Assembly: GCA_964637345.1 (NCBI GenBank)
Contig: CAZWTD010000002.1
Coordinates: forward strand, 6,426 to 70,425
Length of the DNA stretch: 64,000 nt
Direction of reading: 5' to 3'
DNA from: an uncultured Gammaproteobacteria bacterium
Lineage (GTDB): Bacteria > Patescibacteriota > Patescibacteriia > HK-STAS-PATE-3
Both the position numbers and the translations under genes were made by a program. Positions 9,690 through 23,977 of the stretch are shown one piece after another. Every line of letters starts with the position of its first letter. Position 1 is the stretch's first letter. The notes beneath the pieces are model-generated. The model made no database searches. It was given only the letters and a program-made list of their open reading frames with translations, and was not told where the DNA came from.

Positions 9690-10163
9690 ATGAAAATCAT
9701 TATTCTTGAAGACGACGCGACTATCCGACGACTTTATCGGACGATGTTTCTTAAGGCAGGCTTTGATGTTCGCGCTTACGCTGATGCCATCGATATTGTC
9801 ATGAAGACAAAAGCATTTCATCCAGATGTAGTGTTAACAGATCTTCTCATGCCGAAGATTGATGGCTATGAAGCCATTCGATTATTAAGGGCGGAAGAGA
9901 GTCTACACGACCTTCCCATTGTCGTTATTTCTAATCTCGGCGATTACGTGAGTCAGCAAAAGTCCGCCTATCTCGGGGCCACTGATTTCGTCGTGAAGTC
10001 AAATTTCACCCCCTCGGCCTTAACGGCACGCATTCGTGACGTTGTCGCCGGTAAAGTTCCTAAACTCGTTGTTGATCCAAAGGTGACCGCATTTCTCCAG
10101 GCGGAAGAGCGTGCCCACGCTGAACACGCGAAGATGACATCTGAGGATCGTCAGTACACATAA
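9690..10163 (+). CDS. stand-alone response-regulator receiver (CheY-like) domain protein
   Basis: N-terminal acidic pocket (ILEDD) and phospho-acceptor region TDLLMPKIDG are present. There is no output domain and no histidine kinase gene nearby. Confidence 0.65.
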   Translation: MKIIILEDDATIRRLYRTMFLKAGFDVRAYADAIDIVMKTKAFHPDVVLTDLLMPKIDGYEAIRLLRAEESLHDLPIVVISNLGDYVSQQKSAYLGATDFVVKSNFTPSALTARIRDVVAGKVPKLVVDPKVTAFLQAEERAHAEHAKMTSEDRQYT

Positions 10164-10166
10164 ACT

Positions 10167-10493
10167 ATGACTGACGAACGCTGGCAAGAAACCCTCGATC
10201 AACTCAGCGAGCGTTTTTCCGTTTTGTCTCGGGCGACTGAGCCAGCTGAAGACGGGCATGGAACAACCGAACGGGTGGTATTCTCTGGTCCACTTGGGAA
10301 GCTTCGCCTGTCGCGGACGGTGCATGATCGAGTTGTCGGTGAGCGGGCAACCGGCTCACATCGTATCGGGAGCGACGTTGCGATTGAAAAGGTGTACGAC
10401 TCTGGCGATCACGTCAGCTTTTTAACGCTGGAACGCGAGGGTGCGAGCGGAGAGTGGGAAGAGCTTGATCCAGCCAAGTTAGGAGTAAGCTAA
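10167..10493 (+). CDS. hypothetical protein
   Basis: 108-aa ORF immediately after the receiver gene. No recognisable motifs. Confidence 0.3.
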   Translation: MTDERWQETLDQLSERFSVLSRATEPAEDGHGTTERVVFSGPLGKLRLSRTVHDRVVGERATGSHRIGSDVAIEKVYDSGDHVSFLTLEREGASGEWEELDPAKLGVS

Positions 10494-10499
10494 CACACG

Positions 10500-11396
10500 G
10501 TGCCCGAGCTTCCAGAGGTTGAAACAGTCCGCCGGACGCTCCGTCCCGTTCTTCTCGGACGGCGTTTTGAAAAAGTAGAAGTCCGACTACCAAAGCTGAT
10601 CCGCGGCTCTCCTCTCGAAATAGTGAAGCTCAATCACGATCGAATCTGTGGGCTTGAACGCCGAGCGAAGATCCTCATTATCCGTTTGGAATCCGGGCGC
10701 AGTCTTTTGATCCATTTAAAAATGACGGGACAACTCATTCACGTTCAGCGGGACGGCAAGCTGCTGACAGGAGGGCACCCAATTCCCGGTGGGGAGGTGG
10801 GCTTACCAAATCGAACAACTCAGGCAATTTTTCATCTTGATGACGGAAGTGCGTTATTTTTTAACGATGTTAGAAAATTTGCCTATCTCCGCCTCCATCA
10901 CCATCGTGAGCTTCAGGCTTTATTCACGCTTCTTGGACCGGAACCGCTTCTCCCTTCCTTTACCTTTGCGGTGTTTCGTTCGGCCGTCGCTCGTCGGCTC
11001 AAGTCTCAAACGAAAGACGTGCTTCTTGATCAAAGCGTTATTGCGGGACTTGGTAACATCTATGCCGATGAGGTGAATTTTGCCGCCAGGATCCACCCGC
11101 GTCGGCTGGTACGGAGCTTGTCGGAGGAGGAACTTCGCGCAATCTACGGGGCAATAAAGCGCATTCTTCGTTTTGCGGTTCAAAAGCGCGGTACAACCTT
11201 TAGGCATTTTCGAGACGGTCGCGGGGCCCAAGGTGGAATGCGCGCCTATCTCAAGGTCTACGGACGAAGCGGCCAGCCCTGCGTGCGATGTAAAACGCTG
11301 ATTGTCAGAGAGAAACTCGGAAGCCGCTCCGCCCACTACTGTCCGAGATGCCAAACCTTGACCAAACCGAAGTGGGCGGGTACGCTCTCCGTATGA
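10500..11396 (+). CDS. mutM: formamidopyrimidine-DNA glycosylase
   Basis: The N-terminus reads (GTG start)-PELPEVE with the catalytic Pro2. H2TH region, and a C-terminal zinc finger CVRC...CPRC. Confidence 0.85.
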   Translation: MPELPEVETVRRTLRPVLLGRRFEKVEVRLPKLIRGSPLEIVKLNHDRICGLERRAKILIIRLESGRSLLIHLKMTGQLIHVQRDGKLLTGGHPIPGGEVGLPNRTTQAIFHLDDGSALFFNDVRKFAYLRLHHHRELQALFTLLGPEPLLPSFTFAVFRSAVARRLKSQTKDVLLDQSVIAGLGNIYADEVNFAARIHPRRLVRSLSEEELRAIYGAIKRILRFAVQKRGTTFRHFRDGRGAQGGMRAYLKVYGRSGQPCVRCKTLIVREKLGSRSAHYCPRCQTLTKPKWAGTLSV

Positions 11397-12217
11397 TTGA
11401 TCTATTGATCGCAGCACTCTTTGGGGCGGTTCAGGGTATTACCGAGTTTCTTCCAATCTCAAGTTCGGGACACCTCGTTGTGCTTCATGAACTCTTTCCG
11501 AGCTACCTCAATGCCGATCAAGTTGGTTTTGATGTCGCGCTTCACGCCGGAACGCTTTTGGCGCTTATCGTTTTTTTTCGCCAGGACATCGGTCGATTGC
11601 TTCGCGTCGCTGTCGCCTGGCTATTCCGCCGTTCTCGGCCCGAGGATGCGCGCGATCGCGTCATGATTCTCGCGTTGGCAATTGGAACAATTCCTGCGGC
11701 GCTTGTTGGTGCTCTGTTTGAATCTCGTATTGAGTCAACTTTTCGATCCATGGTTTGGGTCGCAGTATGGTTAATTGTTGGCGGATTAGCCTTTCTCTTT
11801 GTTGAAGCGCTTACCAAAGCACGACGAAATCTTGAAATCCTTCGTTTGCGGGACGCGCTGATTGTGGGAGTAACTCAGGTGATCGCCTTTTTGCCAGGTA
11901 TTTCTCGTTCTGGGAGTACAATCATTGCTGGTCGAGCACTCGGCTTCACACATCAGGCCGCTGCCCGTTTTTCTTTTCTCCTTTCTATTCCAGTTGTGTT
12001 TGGGGCTGCCGTGAAAAAAGGCTTTGATCTCGTCGATGCCGGTGTTTCGACCGAGTTAGGCGTTACGATGCTGATCGGCGGTCTTTCGGCCGTTGTTGTC
12101 GGTCTCTTGGCGCTCCGTTTTCTTATGGGTTTTTTTGCAGCGCATACCTTACGAGGCTTTGCTGTGTATCGTTTTGTTCTCGCGGCGTTGCTTCTCGTGG
12201 TGGCAGCGCTTCGATAA
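11393..12217 (+). CDS. uppP: undecaprenyl-diphosphatase (BacA/UppP)
   Basis: The hallmark ITEFLPISSSGH and PGISRSGSTI motifs are present. The start was moved to MIDLLIAAL, and the track start at 11348 overlaps mutM. Confidence 0.85.
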   Translation: MIDLLIAALFGAVQGITEFLPISSSGHLVVLHELFPSYLNADQVGFDVALHAGTLLALIVFFRQDIGRLLRVAVAWLFRRSRPEDARDRVMILALAIGTIPAALVGALFESRIESTFRSMVWVAVWLIVGGLAFLFVEALTKARRNLEILRLRDALIVGVTQVIAFLPGISRSGSTIIAGRALGFTHQAAARFSFLLSIPVVFGAAVKKGFDLVDAGVSTELGVTMLIGGLSAVVVGLLALRFLMGFFAAHTLRGFAVYRFVLAALLLVVAALR

Positions 12218-12221
12218 CAAA

Positions 12222-12252
12222 TCACCCCGCGATTGGCGGGGTGATTGTGTTG
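12222..12252. terminator. putative bidirectional terminator hairpin between convergent uppP and the surface-protein gene
   Basis: TCACCCCGC-GATTG-GCGGGGTGA (9-bp stem) is flanked by an A-rich 5' side and a TTGTGTTG 3' side. The U-tract is weak. Confidence 0.4.
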
Positions 12253-12264
12253 AGAAGTGCCGGA

Positions 12265-13299
12265 CTAGATTGAATGTCCGTCTTTTGGGACAAAACGATA
12301 CGGACGGAACAGCGTCAGGATAAGGAAGCCCACGACGACGATCCAGGGGAACCAGCCGGCGACGCTATCGCAGCGGGCAAGGAAGTAGAGAACAAAGAGA
12401 CCCGACGCAAGTAGGAGTGGTACAATCCAAATCCAAAGGTCGGTTTTCGTCTCAATGAGTTTGTAGTACCCATAGAGGATGAGGAGGCTGCCGATGAGGA
12501 CGATGAGCCAGCCCCACCATCGGATATCCCAGCAGGATTTCGTGGTTTCGTTTGTGCTGGTCGGTAGAACTTCAGTATCGGTCCCTAGGACATCGCCGCT
12601 GTTCGTATTCGCGTTCGCGTTACTGTTTACTGCCGTGGTGTTTGCGAGAGAGGGGAGCGGGGCGTCGACAGCCGCAGCCCGAACGCGGACATCCGCGCTA
12701 CCAGTTACTGATCCAGACTGGGCGATAATACGGCCTTCGCCATCTCGGTTCGCGGTAAAGAGTCCTGTGGCGCTTACTGTTCCAATCGATCCTTCAAGTT
12801 TCCAGGAGACCACAAGATTCGTGAGGAGGTTGTTCATCCGGTCATAGGCCTTCGCTTCGAATTGGCGCCTCTCGCCCCGTCCGACAATTTCCGGGAGGGA
12901 GTTCGGATTAACGACGATGTGATCAACGGGGCCCGGGCGAACAGTTACGGTTGTGCTAACCGATGCGTTATTGAGTGTCGCGCGGACCTTCCAGCTTCCG
13001 AGTGAGCCGGCTGTGTAGACTGGACCGCTCAGGTTCCCGGTTGGGTCGGTTGTTGTGACTTGAGCCGCCCGAGAGGCGTCCCAGGTTTCTCCGGTATCCG
13101 GGTTTGTTGCGAAAATGGAGAATTCGATGGAAGAGCCAGCGTCGAGCGTTACCGTTGTCGGCGACAGCTTGAGAGTTTGGTCGTCATCTCCAGTTGCGGC
13201 ATTCGCGGGAATGGCGAGGGCGAGAAGTCCAAGGAAGAGCGCGAAGCTTCCAAGAAGACGAAAGCGCGTGCGGGGAGCGTGCGGCGTGTGCAGCATAGT
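12265..13299 (-). CDS. secreted Ig-like (Big-domain-like) surface protein with C-terminal membrane anchor and degenerate sorting-like motif
   Basis: Signal peptide FALFLGLLALAIPANA, beta-rich repeats, an NSNANANTNS linker, then ...DVLGTDTEVLPTSTNE... followed by two hydrophobic segments. Start is placed at MLHTP. Confidence 0.45.
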   Translation of the reverse strand, partial: TMLHTPHAPRTRFRLLGSFALFLGLLALAIPANAATGDDDQTLKLSPTTVTLDAGSSIEFSIFATNPDTGETWDASRAAQVTTTDPTGNLSGPVYTAGSLGSWKVRATLNNASVSTTVTVRPGPVDHIVVNPNSLPEIVGRGERRQFEAKAYDRMNNLLTNLVVSWKLEGSIGTVSATGLFTANRDGEGRIIAQSGSVTGSADVRVRAAAVDAPLPSLANTTAVNSNANANTNSGDVLGTDTEVLPTSTNETTKSCWDIRWWGWLIVLIGSLLILYGYYKLIETKTDLWIWIVPLLLASGLFVLYFLARCDSVAGWFPWIVVVGFLILTLFRPYRFVPKDGHSI

Positions 13300-13306
13300 G
13301 GTTGAA

Positions 13307-14002
13307 TTACTGTTCAGCGGTTGGCGTAAATGGCCGACCGTCAATGACAAGGCGATGGGAGGTGGAAAACATTGGTGCGCAAGTGAAGAGCGTCAGTTTT
13401 GGCTCCACGCTAGGGTTGAGTATTTCGGTTTGGTCGGGCGTAACAAGTCGCGTTTCCGCAATTTCGAAGTCGTACTCTTTCATCACTCCGTCCGTTTTCC
13501 AGTAGACAATGATCATGTCGCCCGCAGAAAGACGGTCGGCGAGAGCTAAGGTATTTGGTCCGGCGAGGTATTGAAAGCGATGGACTGTGAGTACGGTATT
13601 ACCTCCGCGATCTGGAGTTGAGGTGTTCGGAAGGCGCCAAGAGCCCCGGAAGAGCGAGTCCTCATTCTCTCCTTCAACGATCGGCATGTCAACACCAATC
13701 CTGGGAATAACGAGGCGGTTCTCTTTCGGAAGCGCCGATCCGATTTTTGGCAGCCGGCCGCTCGGGGCAGTTGTTGTTGAAGGGAGTTGGGTGAAATAGG
13801 GGAATTCCGGTTCTGGCTTCAGCAGCTCGTATCGAAGGATAGGAAGGAAGGGATAAAGGAGGACAAGAACTCCGAGGACAATGAGGCCGCTTGCTGCAAG
13901 TTTGATTGGATGAATACGAAAGCGGGGCCCTGGTCGGGCTGGGGCATTTTTTATCGCGGTGTCTTCGGTCTCCCCCAAGGCCGGACGCTGATCGTTCGGC
14001 AT
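13307..14002 (-). CDS. sortase-family transpeptidase
   Basis: N-terminal TM anchor, catalytic His region (VLTVHRF), the TLFTC active-site cysteine motif, and a downstream Arg. The gene sits immediately upstream, on the same strand, of the surface proteins that carry sorting signals. Confidence 0.8.
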   Translation of the reverse strand: MPNDQRPALGETEDTAIKNAPARPGPRFRIHPIKLAASGLIVLGVLVLLYPFLPILRYELLKPEPEFPYFTQLPSTTTAPSGRLPKIGSALPKENRLVIPRIGVDMPIVEGENEDSLFRGSWRLPNTSTPDRGGNTVLTVHRFQYLAGPNTLALADRLSAGDMIIVYWKTDGVMKEYDFEIAETRLVTPDQTEILNPSVEPKLTLFTCAPMFSTSHRLVIDGRPFTPTAEQ

Positions 14003-14005
14003 AAC

Positions 14006-14929
14006 TTAGGCGCTGGGGTGTTTCGAAAAAGGATAAAATGCGAACGTGGAGATTCCCGCAGTCAAAAGGATTGTCGCGAATACCACGAGGAGCCAGTCGA
14101 AAAATGTGATGCCGCTTGCGGGCAGTTCAGTCGAGGCCCCAAGAACCTGGCCCTGCCGCGCGGCAATCGTGATCTCTGTGCTCGCGGAGAGGGGAGTCGT
14201 TTGAGAGGCTGAGAGTCCAACCGAAATATTACGCGTGCCTGTTGTTGCGCTTGGATCAATTCGGAGATCAACAATGCGAGTTATCGTTTCTCCTGCGTGA
14301 AGTGTTGGAATCGTGATCGGCGCGATGGTAGTAAGGCCCTCGTTGGGATCTATGGTTAGGATCAAATCGCGAGCAGCGTCAGTTCCCGAATTTGCGATGG
14401 ACATTGTAAGTGGGGCGCTCGATCCGGCGACGAGAGTATCTCGAGTGATCGATAGTGTCAGCGCGAGCTTCGGGGAAGATAGCGTTGAAATGACGAGGCT
14501 TGTCGCAATAGCTTCGTTTTGATCAGAGTCCAGGGTAGCCTGAATCGTCAATGCGAGATCATTTTCAATTGTTTCATTAGCCTGAATACTGAACTGCGTT
14601 GTGTGGTTTCCAAGAGCTAGCGCTGGGAAGGACCAACGGGCACTTCGTTCAGAGCTTGCAACAACGCCAGGCTCATCGACAGCAACTATGCGAAGCCCTG
14701 TGGGAACCTTGAGTTGGAGTCGGGCGTCGGTAAGCGCATAGTCGGCTACGGAGTATGTGAGGGTAACGCGTTGTATCGCCCCGGCGTCTATTTCTCCCTC
14801 ACCGTCAATAGAAAGAGTAACCGCGGACACTGTTGTTGTCTTCGGTCGCTCAATCATTTGCGCCGACGCACACGAGGACCAGGTCGCGAGGAGTGTGCAG
14901 CAGGTAAAGAGGGTGATGAGCCGGCGCAT
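14006..14929 (-). CDS. cell-surface repeat protein with LPASG-type C-terminal anchor signal
   Basis: Lipoprotein-like or signal N-terminus (LFTCCTLLATWSSCASA), DUF11-like beta repeats, and a C-terminus reading QGQVLGASTELPASG followed by a hydrophobic stretch and the SKHPSA tail. Confidence 0.5.
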   Translation of the reverse strand: MRRLITLFTCCTLLATWSSCASAQMIERPKTTTVSAVTLSIDGEGEIDAGAIQRVTLTYSVADYALTDARLQLKVPTGLRIVAVDEPGVVASSERSARWSFPALALGNHTTQFSIQANETIENDLALTIQATLDSDQNEAIATSLVISTLSSPKLALTLSITRDTLVAGSSAPLTMSIANSGTDAARDLILTIDPNEGLTTIAPITIPTLHAGETITRIVDLRIDPSATTGTRNISVGLSASQTTPLSASTEITIAARQGQVLGASTELPASGITFFDWLLVVFATILLTAGISTFAFYPFSKHPSA

Positions 14930-14937
14930 CGGAGTAT

Positions 14938-17289
14938 TTACTCAAGAAGACGAGATCGGCGAAGGAGAGAGGCGCCGGCGACAAGGAAGCTTAGGCCAAG
15001 CAGCGCGAGGAGCGCATCGAGGGCCCCAGGTCCCGTTTCCGGAAGCGTGTCTTCCGCCCCAAGCACTTGCCCATTTGTTGCAGGTGTTTCATCGTCGTTC
15101 GTGTCTTCTGCGCCGAGAACTGAGCCCACAACAACGGCGACGCGCGCGGTCGAAGAAAGAGGATCAAGTCCATCCGCGCTCACGCGGGCAATATTGTCAT
15201 AAGTGCCTGCGCTCGCTGAGGGGGCAACCTTCGCCTCGTAGGTCGTTGTAATACTTTCTCCGGCCGGGATCGTACCAAGCATTTTCGCCATCGTTGTTGA
15301 ATCTGAGTCGGAGAAAGTGAAGGAGGTCGGTAGGGTATCGGTCAGAACAACATTCGTCGCAGCGTCAGATCCCGAGTTTTTTACTTTGACGGTGTAGGTG
15401 ACGACTGAACCCGGATGTGCTGATTCCCGATTCGCCGTTTTTTCAATTGTGAGCTTGGGTGAAGATGTAAGTGTCACGTCGGCGCTCGCCTCGAACGAAT
15501 CAACGCCCTTGGCCCGGACATTTGCGGTATTGATAACAATCGTATTGTCCTGAACAGTTGCGTCAACCTGTGTTGTCACTGAGAGTACGTACGAGTTTGG
15601 GGAAAGTGTTCCGAGGGACCACGTCACTGTCCGCGTCGCAGCGTCATAACTCGAACCGGAGCTTGCTTCAACAAAGGTGAGGTGTTCCGGGAGGGGATCG
15701 GAAACAATCACGTCTTCGGCATTTGCGTCGCTTACATTGAGCGTTAGGAAGTAGGTGATTGTTCCGCCAGCGGCTTGAATAGAGGCATTCGCTGATTTTT
15801 CAAGAGTGAGCTTTGGCGTAAGTGTTGGATCTCCTTCGTTTTCGCCACTCGCTTGGTAGTTTCCGAAGTTGAGGTTAGCAATTGTCTCTCCGAAGCCAAG
15901 CGAAATCGGGCCATGCATGGCGCTCGGCGTTCCCGGAAAGCTCTGGGTCCAGTCCGGCTGCATGACTTCTCGGACGAAGTAGGTTCCTGCGTAGGCCGGG
16001 GAGAAGGCATATGATCCGTCAACGGCTGTATGAGTTGTAGCGATTACCGTCGGGCTCCCGGTGAGGTTTCCGCCATTGCTGAAGGGGATGCCGAAACAGG
16101 CTAGGTCAAGGCGACTAATCACTCCGTCATGGTTCAAGTCAACGTTGGGGTTGAAGTTTTGGAACCCTTGCGTCCAGGCGACGAAATCTGACAGGTCAAT
16201 GATGTCGTTATCGTAGTAGTCGTATTCGTTGATATCTTGAGAGCAGGTCGTCAGAAGCTCGACAGTCCAGTGTTCGATGCCGTTTTCCTGGTTGTCCCAG
16301 TTGGTATTCTCATTTTCATCATTCCACTTGCCGCCGGAAATGGATCCCTGGCAGAGACCGAAGAAATGTTCAGTCGTCGCCGTTGAGCGGTTGTCATCCA
16401 GGTTTCGTTCAGGGTAGGGGACGTCCTGACTCGACGGAACTGGAGCAGGAAGAACTTGCTCAATGTCGGCGGTGTTCACGAGTCGTTCGCAGGTTAGAAC
16501 CGACGCGTCAATTGTTACCGTAAGCGAAATAGATCCAGTTTCGCCGATATCGAGCATTGGAATCGTCCAGGTCGCTACTCCGTTATTTACAGAGTCGGGG
16601 GTAGGCGTGGACGAGGCGATCGTTGCGCCGTGAGGAAGGACGTCATTCAGAACAACGTTGTAGGCCGGCCAGTTTCCTGTGTTTGCATAATTGATAACAT
16701 AGGTAATCCCCGTAAGTTTTTCCCCGTTCTCGGCAATTTTTTTATCAACTTGGAGATCAGGGTTTTTCGGGCAGAAACGTTGGGTTGTTGAAGTGGTATC
16801 TTCGACAATGCCGTCGTCCTCCGGAGTTGAAGCGGGTCCGACGCCACGAATATTGGCGGTATTCGTCACGGAAACGCATTCGGTCAGGGCGCCGAAGTCG
16901 AACGATGTGTCGAGGGAGACCGTCCCGTCGGTGTGCCCCGGGAGCGTGCCGATATTCCAGCTCACTGAATGAGAAACCGGATCGTAGGTTCCGCCATTCG
17001 AGGCGCTCATAAAACTAGACGTGGTGGGGAGCTTATCGGTGATGACGACATTGAAAAGCGTTATCCCTCCAGCGTTTTTGTACGATAAGACATACCCGGT
17101 GTCATTTGCTGGGTTGACGCTTTTTATAAGCTCCAGTGGGGAGGTGCCGGGGATAGCCGGTTCAGACGGAAGTACGGCCGCGGTCGTCAGGAGCGGCTGA
17201 GCGAGCAATCCAAAAAGAGTCGATACTGAAAGAATGAAGCGAGCGAGTCGCTGCCCCTTTCTCCAGTTTGATGCATATGATGGGTTCAT
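14938..17289 (-). CDS. large LPETG-anchored surface protein with DUF11 (conserved repeat) domains and dockerin-like Ca-binding motif
   Basis: Strong SD (GAGGAGG) before the ATG at 17289. Signal peptide, multiple LTYTxxVxNxGxxxAxNVVxTDxLP-type repeats, and NVDLNHDGVISRLDLA (dockerin/EF-hand-like). The C-terminus reads GQVLGAEDTLPETG followed by a hydrophobic stretch and RRSRLLE, a classic cell-wall sorting signal. Confidence 0.75.
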   Translation of the reverse strand: MNPSYASNWRKGQRLARFILSVSTLFGLLAQPLLTTAAVLPSEPAIPGTSPLELIKSVNPANDTGYVLSYKNAGGITLFNVVITDKLPTTSSFMSASNGGTYDPVSHSVSWNIGTLPGHTDGTVSLDTSFDFGALTECVSVTNTANIRGVGPASTPEDDGIVEDTTSTTQRFCPKNPDLQVDKKIAENGEKLTGITYVINYANTGNWPAYNVVLNDVLPHGATIASSTPTPDSVNNGVATWTIPMLDIGETGSISLTVTIDASVLTCERLVNTADIEQVLPAPVPSSQDVPYPERNLDDNRSTATTEHFFGLCQGSISGGKWNDENENTNWDNQENGIEHWTVELLTTCSQDINEYDYYDNDIIDLSDFVAWTQGFQNFNPNVDLNHDGVISRLDLACFGIPFSNGGNLTGSPTVIATTHTAVDGSYAFSPAYAGTYFVREVMQPDWTQSFPGTPSAMHGPISLGFGETIANLNFGNYQASGENEGDPTLTPKLTLEKSANASIQAAGGTITYFLTLNVSDANAEDVIVSDPLPEHLTFVEASSGSSYDAATRTVTWSLGTLSPNSYVLSVTTQVDATVQDNTIVINTANVRAKGVDSFEASADVTLTSSPKLTIEKTANRESAHPGSVVTYTVKVKNSGSDAATNVVLTDTLPTSFTFSDSDSTTMAKMLGTIPAGESITTTYEAKVAPSASAGTYDNIARVSADGLDPLSSTARVAVVVGSVLGAEDTNDDETPATNGQVLGAEDTLPETGPGALDALLALLGLSFLVAGASLLRRSRLLE

Positions 17290-17429
17290 GAGTACCTCCT
17301 CGTAAGTATTGAACGAATGAATCACGCGAAAATGTCTTTCACCGACGTTTTTAGGGTGAAAAGGAGCATCTCTAGCGTGTCAGGCATCATAGCATAGCCC
17401 TTGGTTTCGCCACAAACAGCCGTATTCTG

Positions 17430-19637
17430 TCAATCGAGTTCAGGAATCCGACGTCGGAAGAGCGTAACACCCAGTAACAGGCTCGTGAGTCCGAATGCGA
17501 GAATGCCATACTCGATTGGACTGGCTCCGGTTTCGGTCAGCGCTCCGAGCACTTGTCCGCGTTGGACAGTAATCGCTGCAGTGGCGGTCAATTGGGCAAC
17601 ATTATCTCCAACCACGCGTGCCGTGTTGATGAGTTGGCCGGCAGCGGCCGAGGCGCTCACGCGGACAGCGACGTGAATAATTCGTTCGTGGCCGGGGAGC
17701 AAATCCCCGAGCCTCCAGGTTGCCGTGCTTCCAGAGTAGTCAACAAAGGAGAGGCCGGCCGGAACTTCGTCGGTTAGCCGGAGGTTATACGCCGGGGCCA
17801 GTCCGTCGTTCCTGACGCTAAGGGTGTAGGTGACAACGCCCCCAATCGGAACAGTTGAGCGGTCGGCGACTTTTGTCAGAGTGAGCTTTGGACTTGGCGT
17901 ATTCGTTGGAATCACCAAACTTGAGACCTCAACCGTTGCTTTTGCATTCCGCGTTGGATGGTTTGAAGAGCTAACCGTAGCCACATTCTGATAACTTCCT
18001 GCTTTTGTGTCAGTCTTCACGACGACTGCATAGGTAAGGGTCCGGCTCGTTTCAGCTTTGAGCGTGCCAATCGGGAAGGAGCGATCAGTCGCTCCATTGT
18101 CGAGATAAACGAAGCCGGTCGGCAGAACATCCGAGACGACAACCTGAAGCGCGTCGCCGCTTCCCGTGTTTGAAACGACAATGGTGTAGAGGATTGTTTC
18201 ACCGGGCTTCACCGAGTCTTTGTCAGCAGATTTCACGATCGTGAGTTTCGGTGCGCCGCCTACCGTCAGCGATGCTGATGCACTCACCGGCTGTGCGTTG
18301 TCAGCCGAGAGCGTCGCGGTGTTATTGAGTTTTGCGCCAGGTTGCGTTCCAGCAGCGACTCGCGTCTGGACAGTCACGCTACCGCTGTCGCCTGGTTGGG
18401 CGCTTCCGAGCGTCCAGTTGATTTCGCGCGTTGGCGCGTTGTATGCGCCGCCGTTGCTCGCGCTGACAAAAGTGAGGCCCTCGGGCAGAGGATCGCGCAA
18501 GAGTAGTCCGTTGACTGCCTCGGTTCCGCTGACTGACCACGCGAGCGTGTAGGTGACAAGCTCGTTCGGAAGCGCAAGCGTCGGCGCTACCTCTTTAGTG
18601 AGGTGGAGCATCGCCAAGCTCGTGACAGTTGTGCTCGCGGAAGCCTGAACAGGTTTTAGCTCACTGGCCGAGAGGGTCGCGGTATTGGTAATCACTGTCC
18701 CGTTCGCGAGAGGGGAGATAATCTCTGCTGTCCACTGGACGCTGCCGTGGGCCCCGGGAGCTTGGTTACCCAAATTCCAGCGAAGTTCGTTCAGGTTGGG
18801 ATCGTACACGCCGCCTTGTGAGATTGTTGCAAAGATGAGATTGGCTGGAATTGGGTCGGTAAGAACCAGGTCGTATGCCGGACCGCTTCCGCTGACATTC
18901 CACGCAAGGGTATAGGTTAGCGTTGTTCCTGGAGCGGCAATTTCCGCGCTCACGGTTTTTTCTAGACCGATAGAAGGGATGCTTTCAATAGTTGTCGTTG
19001 CCGAATCAGACACTGGGTCAAGCCGGTCAGCGTCAATTGTTGCGGTATTTGTAATGACTGTCCCATTGCCGACCAGAGTATTGATCGTCCCGGTCCAGGT
19101 GAGCATCCCGTGTGCGCCGGATGCTTGGGTTCCGAGCGTCCAGGTAATGGTTGCAGTCCCAGAATCGTAGATCCCGCCGTTTTCGGCTTGCACGAAGCTC
19201 AGCTCTGTTGGAACGGGGTCTGTTACGACAACATTCGTGGCAGTTCCGTTTCCGCCAATGGACCAGTGAAGGGTGTACGTGAGCAAGTCGCCAGGATGTG
19301 CAAGGCTAAGGTCGACCTGTTTGTCGAGGTTGATTGTTGGGTGATTGGCTGGACTTGGGAGCGGAGCGGACGCAGTTGCTGGGGGTTCCGGCGACGTTTC
19401 AGGCTCTTCCGATTGGGTGGTTGATGGTTCCGTAGTTGAATTCGACCGTAGAGCGGGAGTGAGGTTATCCGCGAAGACGGCGGTCTCGGATTCTGGAATA
19501 GCCGCCTCTGTTGCTTCGAGGGTTTTTCCATACGCGAACCCAGGAAGGCAGGCTTGAAGAACAAGACTGACAAGTGCAATCACGGCCATTTTTCGACCGA
19601 AGCGCTGGCGGGAACGGAACACAGAGAAGTTCGGCAT
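17430..19637 (-). CDS. large DUF11-repeat surface protein with LTETG-type C-terminal anchor signal
   Basis: Start moved to MPNFSVFRS (ATG 19635-19637), which precedes a signal peptide. There are about 6 tandem DUF11-like repeats (LTYTLHWSIGGNGTATNVVVTDPVP...). The C-terminus reads RGQVLGALTETG followed by a hydrophobic stretch and FRRRIPELD. Confidence 0.7.
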   Translation of the reverse strand: MPNFSVFRSRQRFGRKMAVIALVSLVLQACLPGFAYGKTLEATEAAIPESETAVFADNLTPALRSNSTTEPSTTQSEEPETSPEPPATASAPLPSPANHPTINLDKQVDLSLAHPGDLLTYTLHWSIGGNGTATNVVVTDPVPTELSFVQAENGGIYDSGTATITWTLGTQASGAHGMLTWTGTINTLVGNGTVITNTATIDADRLDPVSDSATTTIESIPSIGLEKTVSAEIAAPGTTLTYTLAWNVSGSGPAYDLVLTDPIPANLIFATISQGGVYDPNLNELRWNLGNQAPGAHGSVQWTAEIISPLANGTVITNTATLSASELKPVQASASTTVTSLAMLHLTKEVAPTLALPNELVTYTLAWSVSGTEAVNGLLLRDPLPEGLTFVSASNGGAYNAPTREINWTLGSAQPGDSGSVTVQTRVAAGTQPGAKLNNTATLSADNAQPVSASASLTVGGAPKLTIVKSADKDSVKPGETILYTIVVSNTGSGDALQVVVSDVLPTGFVYLDNGATDRSFPIGTLKAETSRTLTYAVVVKTDTKAGSYQNVATVSSSNHPTRNAKATVEVSSLVIPTNTPSPKLTLTKVADRSTVPIGGVVTYTLSVRNDGLAPAYNLRLTDEVPAGLSFVDYSGSTATWRLGDLLPGHERIIHVAVRVSASAAAGQLINTARVVGDNVAQLTATAAITVQRGQVLGALTETGASPIEYGILAFGLTSLLLGVTLFRRRIPELD

Positions 19638-19952
19638 GGGTGCTCGAAGGTTAATCAAGATGATAATGAAAAAGCCAACGAAAGAGGACAAGAAAAAACG
19701 AAGAGACAGAAACTCCGTTTTGTTCGCTTTCGTTGGCTTTTCCCCGTCCTCCGCGGGTTTTTCAAGAAAGAACAAGTGCGAAAATGTGCGCGATCCCTCC
19801 GAAGGTGCGATGAATGTTTTGGGTGTTCTTTTCACAGGAAACCTTAGCAATCACTTTCGTTTGTGTCAACGTTAGCACAACATACTTTTCGTCCCTGTCA
19901 AGATAAAAAGCAAAGAGGGGAATCCGAGATTCTTCGTTGGAAAAATGAAGTT

Positions 19953-19961
19953 TGCTATACT
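19953..19961 (+). promoter_or_regulatory. putative extended -10 (TGcTATACT) promoter element for manC
   Basis: TG-n-TATACT lies about 50 nt upstream of the manC ATG, in a comparatively AT-rich divergent intergenic region. Confidence 0.3.
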
Positions 19962-20010
19962 ATTTAGGCACTCGACATACTCGAAGGACCATTCTTGAAT
20001 CCGGAATCGT

Positions 20011-21090
20011 ATGAAATACGTCATTTTGGCTGGCGGGGGAGGTACTCGACTTTGGCCCTTATCTCGATCGAGTCGGCCGAAGCAATTTCTGCGCCTTATC
20101 GACGATCGGACACTCCTTGAGTTGACGGTCGAGCGTTTGGGAAAAGATATTCCCAGCTCGAAGCTGTTTTTTTCGGTGACCGAGGAAACTGCCCATTTCG
20201 TGCGCGAACTTTTCCCCAAGGTAAGCGAAGATCAGCTCATTATTGAGCCTGAAAAGCGGGATACTGGTCCAGCCATGGGTTTTGTCGCTGCTGTTCTCGA
20301 ATTATCAGACCCGGATGAGCCGATCGCCTTTCTCCCCTCAGACCACTTTATTCGCGATACTGAGCGTTTTGTGCAATCACTCCAGGTGGCTGATGACCTA
20401 ATTCGGGAAACTGGCTGTCTTCTCGATATCGGAGTTATCCCAACTTGGCCGAATACGAACCTTGGCTATACCCGCGTAGGAGAGCGGAAATTCGAACGAA
20501 ACGGGATCGCAATTCATCAATTTCGTGGACACACCGAAAAACCTCCAATCGAAGAAGCCGAAGCCTTCGTTGCATCTGGTGAGTATCTTTGGCACGCGAA
20601 TTATTACATGTGGACTCCTCGGCGTTTCCTTGAGGCGTATGAAACCTACGCTCCGGAAACGGCGGCAACGCTGCGGACGATTCAAAAACTGTGGAAGCAG
20701 GGAGATCGAGCCGGCGTCGCGCGTGAATATGCGACCCTCGAAAAGATTTCTATTGACTATGCAATTACCGAAAAAATTGACCCAAGCCGAGTCCTTATCG
20801 TCCAGGCTCCGTTTGACTGGAGCGATGTCGGCCTCTGGAGCGTGTTAAAGAAACTTCGAGAAGAAAATCCGAATGATAATGTAGCGTCCGGCTCGGAGCT
20901 TCTCGCGATCGATTCCCAGAATTGCCTTGTGTACGGCGAGAAAAAAAAGGTGATTGCGACCGTCGGAGTTCGTGATTTACTGGTTGTTGATACTGGAGAC
21001 GCTCTCCTTGTCTGTCGAAACGATCGCGATCAGGACATTAAGCTTGTCGTCGAAGAGTTGAAACGACGACAAAAGAACGAACTAACCTAA
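20011..21090 (+). CDS. manC: mannose-1-phosphate guanylyltransferase (nucleotidyltransferase)
   Basis: N-terminal ILAGGGGTRLWPLS nucleotidyltransferase motif and overall GMP/ManC architecture. Confidence 0.75.
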   Translation: MKYVILAGGGGTRLWPLSRSSRPKQFLRLIDDRTLLELTVERLGKDIPSSKLFFSVTEETAHFVRELFPKVSEDQLIIEPEKRDTGPAMGFVAAVLELSDPDEPIAFLPSDHFIRDTERFVQSLQVADDLIRETGCLLDIGVIPTWPNTNLGYTRVGERKFERNGIAIHQFRGHTEKPPIEEAEAFVASGEYLWHANYYMWTPRRFLEAYETYAPETAATLRTIQKLWKQGDRAGVAREYATLEKISIDYAITEKIDPSRVLIVQAPFDWSDVGLWSVLKKLREENPNDNVASGSELLAIDSQNCLVYGEKKKVIATVGVRDLLVVDTGDALLVCRNDRDQDIKLVVEELKRRQKNELT

Positions 21091-22145
21091 TGCGACGTTC
21101 GCTTCTCATTTTCTTCATTTGCTTCCTCGTCATTCTCGGCACTGGCGCCGTTGCCTGGTTTTGGTTTTCGGCACAGCTAGGAGCCGCTGATCCTGAAGGG
21201 AGCAGTCAGCGTTTTACTATTGCGAGCGGGGAGAGTAGTGAAGCAATTTCTAAAAGGCTTGATGAATCGGGGATTATCCGAAGCTCGCTGGCTTTCCGGG
21301 TGTACACAGCTCTCGAAGGCCTTTCGAGCGGACTCCAAGCCGGCACCTACGATCTTTCTCCAAGCAGCAAGCTTGCCGACATCGCTCGTGAGCTGTCAGA
21401 TGGAAAAGTGCTTAGCGATGAGATTAAGGTCGTCATCCCCGAAGGATTAACCAATGATCAACTTGCTGATCTCTTGGCCGATGAATTTTTGCCGTACCAA
21501 GAATCCGGGAGCGGCCTTAGCTCCAAGGCCCCATTAAAAGCAGCCTTTCTCGATTCTTTTTCCGGTGAAGATCTTACGACGTCTGACTACCCTTTTCTTG
21601 AGGGTCGCCCAGCCGGCGCGTCGCTTGAGGGCTTTCTTTTCCCTGACACCTATTACTTTTTTAAGACTGCAACTCCCGAAGAAGTACGGAATCGACTCCT
21701 TGATACGTTCGAGGAGAAAGTTCCAGCCACGCTTCGCGCGGAAGCAGAATCACTCAATCGAGATTTTTTTGAAGTCTTGACCCTAGCGTCAATTCTTGAG
21801 AAAGAGCTTCGAACCAGCGCTGACCGAAAAGTTGCCGCCGATCTCTTTTGGCGAAGGCTTGATTCAGGGATGGCTCTTCAATCTGATGCGACGGTGAATT
21901 ATGTAACGGGGAAGTCGAGGCTTCAGCCGACCTTAGACGATCTTGAGGTTGAAAGCCTGTACAACACCTATCTTCATCCCGGTCTTCCGCCTGGACCAAT
22001 TTCTCATCCAAGCCGCGACGCGATTGAGTCTGCGCTTGAACCAACGCCGAATGACTATGTGTACTATTTGAATGATGCGTCGGGAAAAACGCATTTTGCG
22101 AAGACCTACGCTGAACATCTTGCGAATAAAGCAAAATATCTCTAA
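21090..22145 (+). CDS. mltG: endolytic murein transglycosylase MltG (YceG-like)
   Basis: N-terminal TM helix, a YceG-like domain, and a C-terminus ending ...YYLNDASGKTHFAKTYAEH. The start codon overlaps the manC stop. Confidence 0.8.
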   Translation: MRRSLLIFFICFLVILGTGAVAWFWFSAQLGAADPEGSSQRFTIASGESSEAISKRLDESGIIRSSLAFRVYTALEGLSSGLQAGTYDLSPSSKLADIARELSDGKVLSDEIKVVIPEGLTNDQLADLLADEFLPYQESGSGLSSKAPLKAAFLDSFSGEDLTTSDYPFLEGRPAGASLEGFLFPDTYYFFKTATPEEVRNRLLDTFEEKVPATLRAEAESLNRDFFEVLTLASILEKELRTSADRKVAADLFWRRLDSGMALQSDATVNYVTGKSRLQPTLDDLEVESLYNTYLHPGLPPGPISHPSRDAIESALEPTPNDYVYYLNDASGKTHFAKTYAEHLANKAKYL

Positions 22146-22834
22146 TGAAGCCAAGTTCCTCAACCTTCGTTCTCTCACTTGGCGGGTCGCTTCTAGCGCC
22201 GAGCGAGCTTGATGTTGCGTATCTCAAGCGACTTCGTCGCTTCATCCTCGGCTGGGTTCGACGAGGAGCGCGTTTTGCAGTCATTACCGGCGGCGGCGAC
22301 CTGAATCGTCGCTATAACGCTGCGACGCGCCGTGCTGCAGATATCCGTCCGGCAGATCTCGATTGGATCGGCATCGCGACGACAAAGCTTCACGCGCAGG
22401 TTGTCCGGGCTTTGTTTGGTACACGTGCATATGAGCACATTCTCGACAACCCTGAGCATCCGCCGAAAACGAAGCGCCCTATCCTCGTCGGCGGAGGATA
22501 TGTCCCGGGAAGCTCAACTGATCTGGATGCAGTTCTTCTGGCGAAGGCCTGGGGCGCGAAGACGATTATCAACCTAACGAATACCAGTCATGTATATGAT
22601 CGCGATCCGCGGAAGGACCCAAAGGCTAAGGCGCATTCGGAAATGACCTGGACGGCGTATCGAAAATTGATTCCAAAACGCTGGACGCCCCGACTTTCGA
22701 CGCCCTTTGATCCGGTCGCGAGTCGGGAAGCCGAGCGGCTTGGGTTAACGGTTTGCATTCTCAACGGGCGAGATTTCTCGTCGTTTCAACGCTTGCTCAA
22801 AGGAAAGTCATTTAAAGGGACAAGGATCTCCTAG
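22145..22834 (+). CDS. pyrH: UMP kinase (amino-acid kinase fold, archaeal/short type)
   Basis: The FVLSLGGSLL N-terminal motif, AVITGGGD, and a length of 229 aa are typical of the short UMPK form. TAATG overlap with mltG. Confidence 0.55.
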   Translation: MKPSSSTFVLSLGGSLLAPSELDVAYLKRLRRFILGWVRRGARFAVITGGGDLNRRYNAATRRAADIRPADLDWIGIATTKLHAQVVRALFGTRAYEHILDNPEHPPKTKRPILVGGGYVPGSSTDLDAVLLAKAWGAKTIINLTNTSHVYDRDPRKDPKAKAHSEMTWTAYRKLIPKRWTPRLSTPFDPVASREAERLGLTVCILNGRDFSSFQRLLKGKSFKGTRIS

Positions 22835-23002
22835 GGAACTCTTGACTATGCTTCATTCCTAGTGTACGCTCTTTTTGCCTATCGAAGACCGTACGGTCCG
22901 GCAGTCGCCGGATTCAAACGCCAACCGTACCGAGGTAGCGCGAAATGCCCGAAAAGCGGGCAAATCAACGGTCTTCGAGGACCGTTTCTTTATTGAACAC
23001 CT
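22835..23002 (+). promoter_or_regulatory. rplJ 5' leader with multiple hairpins (candidate L10 autoregulatory leader / attenuator)
   Basis: 168-nt untranslated region containing the 12-nt palindrome GACCGTACGGTC, CCGGC-AGTCG-CCGG, GCCCG-AAAA-GCGGGC, and GGTC-TTCGAG-GACC followed by GTTTCTTTATT, directly upstream of rplJ. Confidence 0.35.
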
Positions 23003-23533
23003 ATGGGGAAAACCCGCACCCAGAAAGCTGAAGAACTCGATCGTCTGCGCGAGCGACTCGCCCGCATGAAGGTTGCCGTTATGACAACCTCAAGCCGTTT
23101 GACCGTTTCCGAAGAGACGGAGCTCCGCCGTTCGATGCGGAAATCGGAGGCCGATTATCTCATTATCAAGAAGACCCTCCTGCGCCTCGCGCTCAAAGAA
23201 GCTGGCATTGATCCTGCCGGACTCGCGTCGCTCGATAAGCCCTTTAGCGTAACGCTCGGGTACGGCGATGAAGTCGGAGTTGCGAAAGCGCTTGCAGCGT
23301 TTAAAAAAGAGCATGAAGCAGTTGATTTCCTCGGCGGAATCCTCGACGGCCGCTACCTGAGCGCTGAAGAAGTGAAAGCCCTCGCGAAACTTCCGTCGAA
23401 GACCGAGATGCTTGGACAATTCGTCCGAACGCTCCAAGCGCCAGTCAGCGGATTTGCCTCGGTACTCCGCAACAATATCTCGGGACTTCTTACCGTTCTT
23501 TCAGCCGTTCGAGATCAGAAATCAGCATCGTAA
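23003..23533 (+). CDS. rplJ: 50S ribosomal protein L10
   Basis: Characteristic L10 sequence, followed by rplL. Confidence 0.9.
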   Translation: MGKTRTQKAEELDRLRERLARMKVAVMTTSSRLTVSEETELRRSMRKSEADYLIIKKTLLRLALKEAGIDPAGLASLDKPFSVTLGYGDEVGVAKALAAFKKEHEAVDFLGGILDGRYLSAEEVKALAKLPSKTEMLGQFVRTLQAPVSGFASVLRNNISGLLTVLSAVRDQKSAS

Positions 23534-23560
23534 TCTTTACCAGTTATTTATTGAATCACT

Positions 23561-23977
23561 ATGTCAGACGAAAGCACGCAAGCGAATGAGACCGTCGAGG
23601 TTCCGGAAAAGTTTAAGGCCCTCGTTGAGCAGATTGAGAAACTCAACGTCCTCGAGCTTTCCGAACTCGTTAAGGTTCTTGAAAAGAAATTTGGCGTTTC
23701 CGCCCAAGCCGCTCCGATGATGATGGCGGCCGCCCCAGCCGGGGAAGCGGCAGCTGCTGAAGAGAAGTCTTCGTTCAACGTCGAGCTGACCGAAGCTGGC
23801 GCGAACAAAATTGCCGTCATTAAGGTTGTCCGAGAGTTAACCCAGAAGGGTCTCAAGGAAGCGAAAGACCTTGTCGACGGAGCTCCGAAAGTGATAAAAG
23901 AAGGCGCGACCAAGGAAGAAGCGGAAGATATGAAGAAGAAGCTTGAGGAAGCAGGTGGAAAGGTGACGCTGAAATAA
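23561..23977 (+). CDS. rplL: 50S ribosomal protein L7/L12
   Basis: N-terminal dimerisation helix, an Ala/Pro/Met-rich hinge ([19 protein letters not shown]), and the C-terminal domain [12 protein letters not shown]...[13 protein letters not shown]. Confidence 0.9.

Follow-up and report, generated by a model that had tools for sequence, protein, structure and literature searches.

A conserved VLG box ahead of the sorting signals of sortase substrates in Patescibacteria

The window analysed here is a stretch of 64,000 nucleotides from an uncultured bacterium placed by GTDB in the Patescibacteriota (contig CAZWTD010000002.1 of assembly GCA_964637345.1, positions 6,426 to 70,425 of the forward strand). 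It carries five neighbouring genes, all on the minus strand: those of three surface proteins, P3, P2 and P1, then a sortase gene and the gene of a protein with Big_2 domains and three transmembrane (TM) segments, hereafter Big_2/3-TM. Ahead of the C-terminal sorting signal of P1, P2 and P3, and in the linker of the Big_2/3-TM protein, stands a short box with the consensus (G/P)-x-V-L-G-(A/E). This box is real, under purifying selection at the protein level, and found only among substrates of a single sortase clade of the Patescibacteria, or Candidate Phyla Radiation (CPR); on the evidence of the sequences it is a short linear motif specific to this lineage. We lean, with some hesitation, towards the view that it might be a docking motif, recognised in trans within a composite signal that serves a clade of class-C-like CPR sortases.

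The C-termini of the three surface proteins are all present in the sequence as an earlier note on this DNA had quoted them: ...ARQGQVLGASTELPASG followed by a TM segment and a tail with a single Lys in P1, ...VVVGSVLGAEDTNDDETPATNGQVLGAEDTLPETG with a TM segment and RRSR in P2, ...TVQRGQVLGALTETG with a TM segment and RRR in P3 (box-bearing example peptides of these signals are QVLGAEDTLPETG, TVQRGQVLGALTETGASPIEY and NGQVLGAEDTLPETGPGALD). In P3 the box GQVLGA (17541-17558, with VLG at 17544-17552) abuts the pentapeptide LTETG (17526-17540), which opens a sorting signal (17448-17540) made of this pentapeptide, the acidic-aromatic element ASPIEY, the TM helix and RRR. P2 has two boxes, in the order GSVLGA-EDTNDDETPATN-GQVLGA-EDT-LPETG: the first (15109-15126) comes right behind the last strand of the preceding domain (VAVVV), the second (15055-15072) three residues ahead of LPETG (15031-15045), and the sorting signal (14950-15045) continues with PGALDA, the TM segment and RRSR. 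The layout of P1 is GQVLGA-STE-LPASG, with the box at 14135-14152 and a signal (14036-14125) composed of LPASG (14111-14125), ITFFDW and an unusually conserved TM segment with no Arg/Lys cluster. As for the Big-like neighbour, to which a degenerate box followed by TM segments had been ascribed, it does end in ...SGDVLGTDTEVLPTST and then three TM segments; in its layout, GDVLGT-DTE-VLPTST, the box (12580-12597) lies in the linker and no TG-type cleavage motif stands behind it.

That just one of the three pentapeptides is canonical was also correctly seen: LPETG of P2, against LPASG of P1 and LTETG of P3. The curated anchor model TIGR01167 (LPXTG_anchor) recognises P2 (18.4 bits, cut-off 15.9) and gave no match for P1 or P3 at E <= 0.1; the Pfam model Gram_pos_anchor (PF00746) matched none of the three at E <= 0.01. 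Two details have to be amended. P2 does not repeat NGQVLGAEDT twice—its copies are VGSVLGAEDT and NGQVLGAEDT, with VLGAEDT in common—and the distance of 5-8 residues between box and pentapeptide holds when counted from the Q of the one to the L of the other (8, 5 and 8), with 3, 0 and 3 residues intervening between the A of the box and this L. The five boxes of the window are written with different codons for V-L-G (GTT CTT GGG, GTT CTC GGC, GTG CTT GGG, GTG CTC GGA and GTC CTA GGG), so that what is conserved is the peptide; a repeat at the DNA level as the origin of the boxes is thereby ruled out.

The conservation extends well beyond the window. A scan of genome contigs with the single sortase as query gave one locus, and a sortase alignment run against metagenomes yielded 80 more (related loci are designated below by L numbers); the named relatives of the sortase are all Patescibacteria, i.e. 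Candidatus Nomurabacteria, Kerfeldbacteria and "Patescibacteria group". Substrates were defined without reference to the box, by a single C-terminal TM segment, a [TS]G at most 12 residues from it and a basic tail; with spurious frames removed by eye, 58 non-redundant sortase-adjacent tails were retained. The box is kept in a syntenic metagenome-assembled genome (MAG) whose sortase is 58% identical (EVLGEVLGVETVAEPEVLGAEATLPETG, GQVLGASTSADGLTETG, and EGEVLGEQDE in the Big_2 protein), in a complete Nomurabacteria genome of 1.08 Mb (GQVLGVSDEASTEDTNTAQGQVLGAEDTLPETG; LVLGAEAE...GQVLGAETELSPTG; GEVLGENDE) and in a Kerfeldbacteria MAG (KVLGLATTG; GQVLGAEDELPATG). In the 58 tails, the last box ahead of the TG reads VLG in 42 cases, VLA in 9, VKG in 3 and ILG in 3, and one tail has none. 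Thus, variants included, 57 of 58 sortase-adjacent substrates have it, and the conservation noticed earlier within the window extends to homologues in related genomes.

Within the box, V and L are each kept in 54 of 57 cases and G in 48 (~95/95/84%), while in the pentapeptide L is kept in 51 of 58 tails and T in 56; expressed as information content, V, L and G of the box reach 4.0, 4.0 and 3.7 bits, against 3.7, 4.1 and 4.3 bits for L, T and G of the pentapeptide. Position 2 of the latter, the classic Pro, is loose (A in 19, P in 17, T in 8, V in 6, E in 4 and G in 2 of the 58), which gives the consensus L-[APTV]-x-T-G. Around the box we find G or P at -2, V at -5 (39/57), V, L or I at -7, and mostly A or E at +1, where L and T also occur and Pro never does (0/57). 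From the G of the box to the T of TG there are 1 to 14 intervening residues, most often 5 or 7; two or three boxes occur in 10 of the 58 tails, and in the shortest signals box and pentapeptide share their Leu (VLAATG, VLAETG, VLAASG, VLGLTG). The box stays constant while its flanks diverge, across loci whose sortases are 33-59% identical, and it also occurs in proteins of other architectures than CLIPPER, the stalk domain introduced below, within linkers rich in Pro, Glu, Ser and Thr (L024, L058, L068, L079, L080).

Behind the TG a second, clade-specific element is seen, x-[G/S]-x-x-[D/E] (D/E in 47 of 58, four residues past the TG), followed by Y, L, I, V, F or W at the start of the TM helix. 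In the window it lies at 17508-17525, 15013-15030 and 14093-14110, where the tails read TGASPIEY, TGPGALDA and SGITFFDW; a further example is TGAGLMDY. The classic LPXTG signal lacks this [D/E]-[Y/W/F] element of the CPR tails.

Controls were taken from two sides. The first are 18 LPXTG-type substrates whose genes neighbour sortases of classes A, C, D and E on plasmids from Firmicutes and Actinobacteria (Lactobacillus, Enterococcus, Arthrobacter, Bifidobacterium, Bacillus, Clostridium and Priestia): none has VLG in the 40 residues ahead of its motif (Fisher's test, 51/58 vs 0/18, p = 4e-12). The second concern the domain that carries the signals, since P2 and P3 are built of CLIPPER, the new name of DUF11, a CnaA-like isopeptide stalk domain of fibrillar surface adhesins (PMC12617251). 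An exhaustive phmmer search with P3 against 1.84 billion representatives returned 28,670 CLIPPER proteins. Among the best 150 of these, the box is found in none of the 17 LPXTG/LAXTG tails of non-CPR proteins, and others carry unrelated C-terminal sorting domains; VLG and a TG-type signal are combined in only four proteins (P3 itself, P0140, P0167 and P0193), whose tails are all of the CPR type, three of them having the acidic-aromatic element behind the TG. The box is hence absent from all 35 control LPXTG tails beyond this lineage, and the earlier statement that it is not part of the classic sorting signal stands. Besides, two non-CPR CLIPPER giants, P0126 and P0143, have P-V-P-V-L-G abutting the TM helix, behind which comes an Arg-rich tail, and a TG is missing; these ends are probably a different type of C-terminal sorting domain, in which VLG is incidental.

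In the related loci VLG reaches a density of 2.88 per 1000 residues among positions 36-70 counted back from the C-terminus, as against 0.5-0.64 elsewhere and 0.50 expected from composition. We estimate the chance of a VLG at most 15 residues from the TG at about 0.01 per protein, so that three cases out of three would arise by chance with a probability of about 1e-6. Together with the controls, this density means that the box is due neither to chance nor to a local duplication, and is a general property neither of LPXTG proteins nor of CLIPPER domains. Several explanations are removed in this way: a chance match by the density and Fisher's test, a general feature of LPXTG substrates by the plasmid and non-CPR CLIPPER controls, a feature of the CLIPPER domain family by the non-CPR CLIPPER tails and by most of the domain junctions discussed below, and the duplication artefact envisaged by the earlier note by the retention of the box in related genomes and the differing codons of its copies.

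In an AlphaFold model covering the last two domains of P3 and the tail, both domains reach a predicted local distance difference test (pLDDT) above 90. The last strand finishes at Q241, V245-L246-G247 are in coil, residues 246-252 have a pLDDT below 50 (mean of the block 241-250, 54), and the TM helix spans 256-279. This coil and its low pLDDT suggest a short linear motif in a linker that is predicted to be disordered. Read from the sequences, the composite signal would run as follows: last domain strand (VxV[RK]), x-[G/P]-x-VLG-[A/E], flexible spacer of 0-11 residues, L-[A/P/T/V]-x-T-G, post-TG element, TM helix and basic tail.

The box is not confined to the C-terminal signal. An internal copy is found about 160 residues from the C-terminus, just ahead of the last CLIPPER domain (e.g. 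in L010, L021, L025, L032 and L035), with the sequence ...VEVRVPKVLGEETKPILQIKK, that is VLG-x4-P-x-L-x-I-x-K, four residues ahead of the A-strand and with fixed spacing. Among 45 relatives 20 have this internal box in strict form and 10 in a variant form, so that in about two thirds of them the wall-proximal CLIPPER domain has a box on either side. P2 and P3 of the window have no internal copy. At the other domain junctions that were read the box is missing in four of five large relatives, L032 having one extra copy ahead of its penultimate CLIPPER domain.

The same peptide recurs in the Big_2/3-TM family, with homologues in 17 related loci (homologues are noted in L001, L002, L009, L010, L012, L013, L016-L018, L022, L023, L025, L030, L031, L035, L092, L094 and L095) and, wherever gene maps were read, directly downstream of the sortase. 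The family is built of a signal peptide, Big_2 immunoglobulin (Ig)-like domains, an N/T-rich linker and a 3-TM domain with C-W-D-I-x-W-W-G-W ... R-C-D; Big_2 is its sole Pfam or NCBIfam match. Most members have xV[LA][GAS]xE in the linker ahead of the first TM segment, and no cleavage motif. The Big_2/3-TM protein may be a partner or a platform of the sortase.

How could the box act? In the docking interpretation it would work in trans, as an exosite element recruiting the neighbouring class-C-like sortase, or a complex of this sortase with the Big_2/3-TM partner that bears the same box. Docking would supply the specificity lost by the degenerate pentapeptide, and scission would stay between T and G. 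A tethered docking site would account for the variable spacing and the tandem copies better than a rigid lengthening of the cleavage motif; docking would moreover explain the relaxed pentapeptide, the restriction to a lineage and why the co-encoded membrane partner has the box too.

The sortase itself belongs to the superfamily (PF04203, 70.5 bits, cut-off 26.6; TIGR01076, 62.9, cut-off 39.35), and its H141, C208 and R217 are invariant in 39 members of the clade. It scores below the cut-offs of the individual classes (160-165), with 59.6 for class C (NF033745), 53.6 for class E (NF033747) and 52 for class D. Among solved structures, pilus-type class C sortases come nearest to it in both sequence and predicted fold; one clade member is labelled "class E sortase" at NCBI. 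There is no clear DP[FWY] lid motif, and a segment E-F-P-Y-F / x-Y-P-Y is found instead. About 45 residues between the TM segment and the catalytic domain (13793-13858; residues 49-100) are conserved among the closer relatives, with the motif P51-F-x-P54-x-[IL]-x-Y58 ... P-x-P-x-[YF]-P-Y69-x-T-[KR]-L ... L84-P85 ... P92 and an AlphaFold pLDDT of 74-87. This juxtamembrane segment could be a lid or an exosite, and it is a possible receptor for the box.

Several observations weigh against docking. A spacing of 1-14 residues and frequent duplication do not suit a strictly extended signal, and in the minimal signals VLAxTG and VLGLTG the shared Leu makes two separate sites impossible. In the structures of class A-E sortases, few contacts are made upstream of the Leu of the pentapeptide. 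The internal box, at a fixed distance about 110 residues upstream of the C-terminal one, looks structural and not like a docking site for cleavage; and a box without any cleavage motif, as in the Big_2/3-TM protein, indicates that the box is not tied to sortase cleavage itself. The juxtamembrane segment showed no clear association with the presence of the box among distant relatives, many of which the regular expressions missed, and the AlphaFold model of the tail was built on an alignment of five sequences. Because it also occurs outside sorting signals, the box is not purely an element of these signals, and a reading by sortase recognition is incomplete. The "extended sorting signal" of the earlier note can then be kept in part: the box is real, conserved and absent from the controls; its variable spacing, its duplication and its occurrence elsewhere do not agree with a mere extension.

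A wider version of the docking idea is that of a large CPR sortase clade with bipartite recognition, in which a tethered VLG box would provide docking and a relaxed LxxTG would mark the scissile bond, the Big_2/3-TM partner being a platform or even an acceptor; we consider it doubtful. Equally doubtful is the further element of this idea, that the box would be common to all substrates and to the Big_2/3-TM partner, following a logic not described for the sortase classes A-F. The other proposal of the earlier note, a cleavage or linkage site distinct from LPXTG, is possible.

A rival explanation is a site for processing or shedding. A membrane-proximal protease that prefers small residues at -3 and -1, as type I signal peptidase does, would make its cut behind V-x-G/A; this we judge unlikely, and it is just as unlikely that such a cut detaches all or most of the protein from the anchor and frees the ectodomain of the Big_2/3-TM protein. 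The pattern of variants is compatible with it, with V or I kept at -3 and G, A or S at -1 while -2 changes (VLG, VLA, VKG, ILG, VFG, VRG, VAG, VAA, ILS), and so are the residues found at +1. The box moreover sits without exception in exposed, disordered linkers close to the membrane; this holds for cleaved as well as non-cleaved proteins, and for the boxes on either side of the wall-proximal domain. Tandem boxes would make cleavage likelier. On the other hand, a pure -3/-1 rule leaves unexplained why Leu is 95% conserved at -2 in the C-terminal box; a cut between the cargo and its covalent anchor would reverse the anchoring; a crude motif scan found no signal-peptidase-I-like gene in the window; and the lack of Pro at +1 is weakly significant, about 3 being expected by estimate.

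The box could also be a structural linker element with no enzyme to recognise it, for example a short hydrophobic plug or hinge capping CLIPPER-type domains or helping to span the wall, an explanation that seems improbable to us. It would account for the fixed register to the preceding strand (V at -5, V/L/I at -7, G/P at -2) and, for the internal copy, to the next domain, as well as for the boxes on both sides of the terminal domain. AlphaFold nevertheless leaves the box unpacked, as a coil of low pLDDT; it is absent from the other junctions in most of the large relatives and from all the non-CPR CLIPPER proteins examined, and it is present in CLIPPER-free proteins and in low-complexity linkers. 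Three residues so strictly kept inside free linkers would be unusual for a passive spacer. The same facts bear on the suspicion that the box belongs to a repeated domain unrelated to the anchor, raised in the earlier note and borne out in part: it can indeed flank the terminal CLIPPER domain on both sides, and apart from this mostly does not follow the domain.

Lastly, a relic—the N-terminal half of an ancestral class-E-like V-L-A-x-T-G left by a downstream duplication, or the shared ancestry of paralogous tails—is very improbable: the compressed signals with a shared Leu and the tandem VLG copies, which show duplication in these linkers, speak for it, but decay would be expected, whereas V, L and G are highly conserved among divergent sortases and under synonymous codon variation, and the box occurs in unrelated architectures and in the Big_2/3-TM family.

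Compared with known systems, the signals share with the classic tripartite LPXTG signal (TIGR01167/Gram_pos_anchor) a C-terminal L-x-x-T-G, a hydrophobic helix, a basic tail in P2 and P3, and an adjacent sortase gene. They differ from it by an additional and equally conserved VLG box 1-14 residues upstream and by the degenerate position 2, and P1 and P3 escape the curated anchor models. With the class E LAXTG signals of Actinobacteria they have in common that Ala is the commonest residue at position 2, many tails being LAxTG and some VLAxTG; however the sortase is below the class E cut-off (53.6 vs 160), and the LAXTG tails of non-CPR CLIPPER proteins (LAHTG, LAFTG, LAITG, LAVTG) are box-free. 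The likeness to class C pilus loci of the SpaA/RrgB type lies in the nearest sortases, in substrates with isopeptide domains (TIGR04226) and in a small third substrate; in the related locus L095 a large substrate has VWA and SpaA-type domains, like pilus tip adhesins. The difference here is a class C score of 59.6 vs 160 and an extra determinant that is upstream, variably spaced and repeatable. No YPK pilin motif ([YFW]PK) was found in P1-P3. Since neither this motif nor a DP[FWY] lid was found, we do not label the locus as a sortase-assembled, SpaA-type pilus locus; the genes are similarly arranged, but with the sortase also below the class C cut-off polymerisation is not supported.

Determinants outside LPXTG have precedents in pilins, such as the triple glycine after LPXTG in Lactobacillus rhamnosus GG and the QVPTGV signal in Streptococcus pyogenes FCT-3. 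As to the VLG box, we found no description of it in the literature, and no curated NCBIfam or Pfam model covers it. Database searches over 5.8 billion sequences gave no significant match either with the last P3 domain and its tail, a short and TM-rich query (317 candidates, 0 at E <= 0.001), or with an alignment of 46 tails (5252 candidates, 0 at E <= 10), because short TM-rich queries cannot reach significance against so many sequences. The box appears to be a lineage-specific addition to the classic sortase signal, for which a role in sortase recognition is plausible.

Turning to the genes themselves, P3 occupies 17430-19850 as longest open reading frame (ORF), with a TTG start, or 17430-19637 from an ATG; its start is uncertain, with ATG candidates at 19637 and 19589, and a database protein, P0061 (719 amino acids), fits the latter. 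It has a signal peptide, five CLIPPER domains of isopeptide type (PF01345, 258 bits in 5 stretches, Pfam gathering cut-off 24.6) and the C-terminal sorting signal. P2 (14938-17325, likely ATG 17289) has four CLIPPER domains (177 bits in 4 stretches) and a central SdrD_B/dockerin-like region: at about 16072-16245 (residues 361-418 and 423-462), a GC-type dockerin (NF041540, E = 0.005) and SdrD_B, which is CnaB-like, are weakly matched. P2 may be an adhesive or tip component. Both proteins also match the isopeptide fimbrial model TIGR04226, and TIGR01451 is likewise matched (evidence from P3).

P1 (14006-14929), directly upstream of the sortase gene, is a secreted Ig-like protein of 307 amino acids. 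Its significant matches are NPCBM_assoc and CARDB, that to CLIPPER being weak (18.2 bits, below the cut-off); of the three "DUF11 proteins" of the earlier note P2 and P3 deserve the name, and P1 is not CLIPPER by Pfam. Orthologues of P1 are present in L001 (6922-8004), L002 and L092 (8988-10001). In these and in the window (14036-14110) the C-terminal TM segment F-x-D-W-L ... F-L-I-T-A-G-I-[ST]-T ... F-Y-P-F is unusually conserved, and the orthologues have no Arg/Lys cluster, in contrast to the remaining substrates. Perhaps this helix serves a specific purpose, or P1 is not an ordinary substrate of the sortase. The stop of P1 and the ATG of the sortase (14002-14008) are in the same frame, one codon apart (...HPSA*VMPNDQ), which suggests that their translation is tightly coupled. 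The sortase gene follows (13307-14002), encoding an N-terminal TM segment, the juxtamembrane segment and the catalytic domain, then the Big_2/3-TM gene (12265-13350, ATG 13296), whose product consists of a Big_2 ectodomain, a low-complexity linker and the 3-TM domain with two conserved Cys.

The whole neighbourhood (9690-23977) is syntenic with the CPR loci L001, L092 (CP060223.1), L094 and L095. The order is L10-L7/L12, amino-acid kinase, YceG and NTP-transferase, then the CLIPPER proteins, the sortase and Big_2/3-TM, then BacA, Fpg and a response regulator. Rather than a mobile island, the cluster is a stable part of the chromosome, beside genes of undecaprenyl-phosphate recycling. Another gene recurs near the sortase (L010, L013, L018, L025, L030), with ORFs of about 480-500 amino acids and a conserved C-terminal membrane region ...FVKIR[IV]QHAH[VI]IGQT...KFHFL...

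Over half of the CPR genomes contain a sortase gene (PMC6744442). Sortase signals serve to predict surface proteomes of the Gram-positive type, and sortases serve as tools for protein ligation. The adhesins of CPR bacteria are prime candidates for host attachment, and two of the three substrates described here escape the curated anchor models; a composite signal made of the VLG box, LxxTG and [DE][YWF]-TM would permit CPR surface proteins to be predicted systematically. Should the box serve for docking, a new mechanism of specificity would come to light, perhaps with a more selective ligation tag as well; a processing site would instead suggest that episymbionts shed their adhesins in a regulated way. 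Were bipartite recognition to be true, it would amount to a new mode of anchoring surface proteins in ultra-small episymbiotic bacteria.

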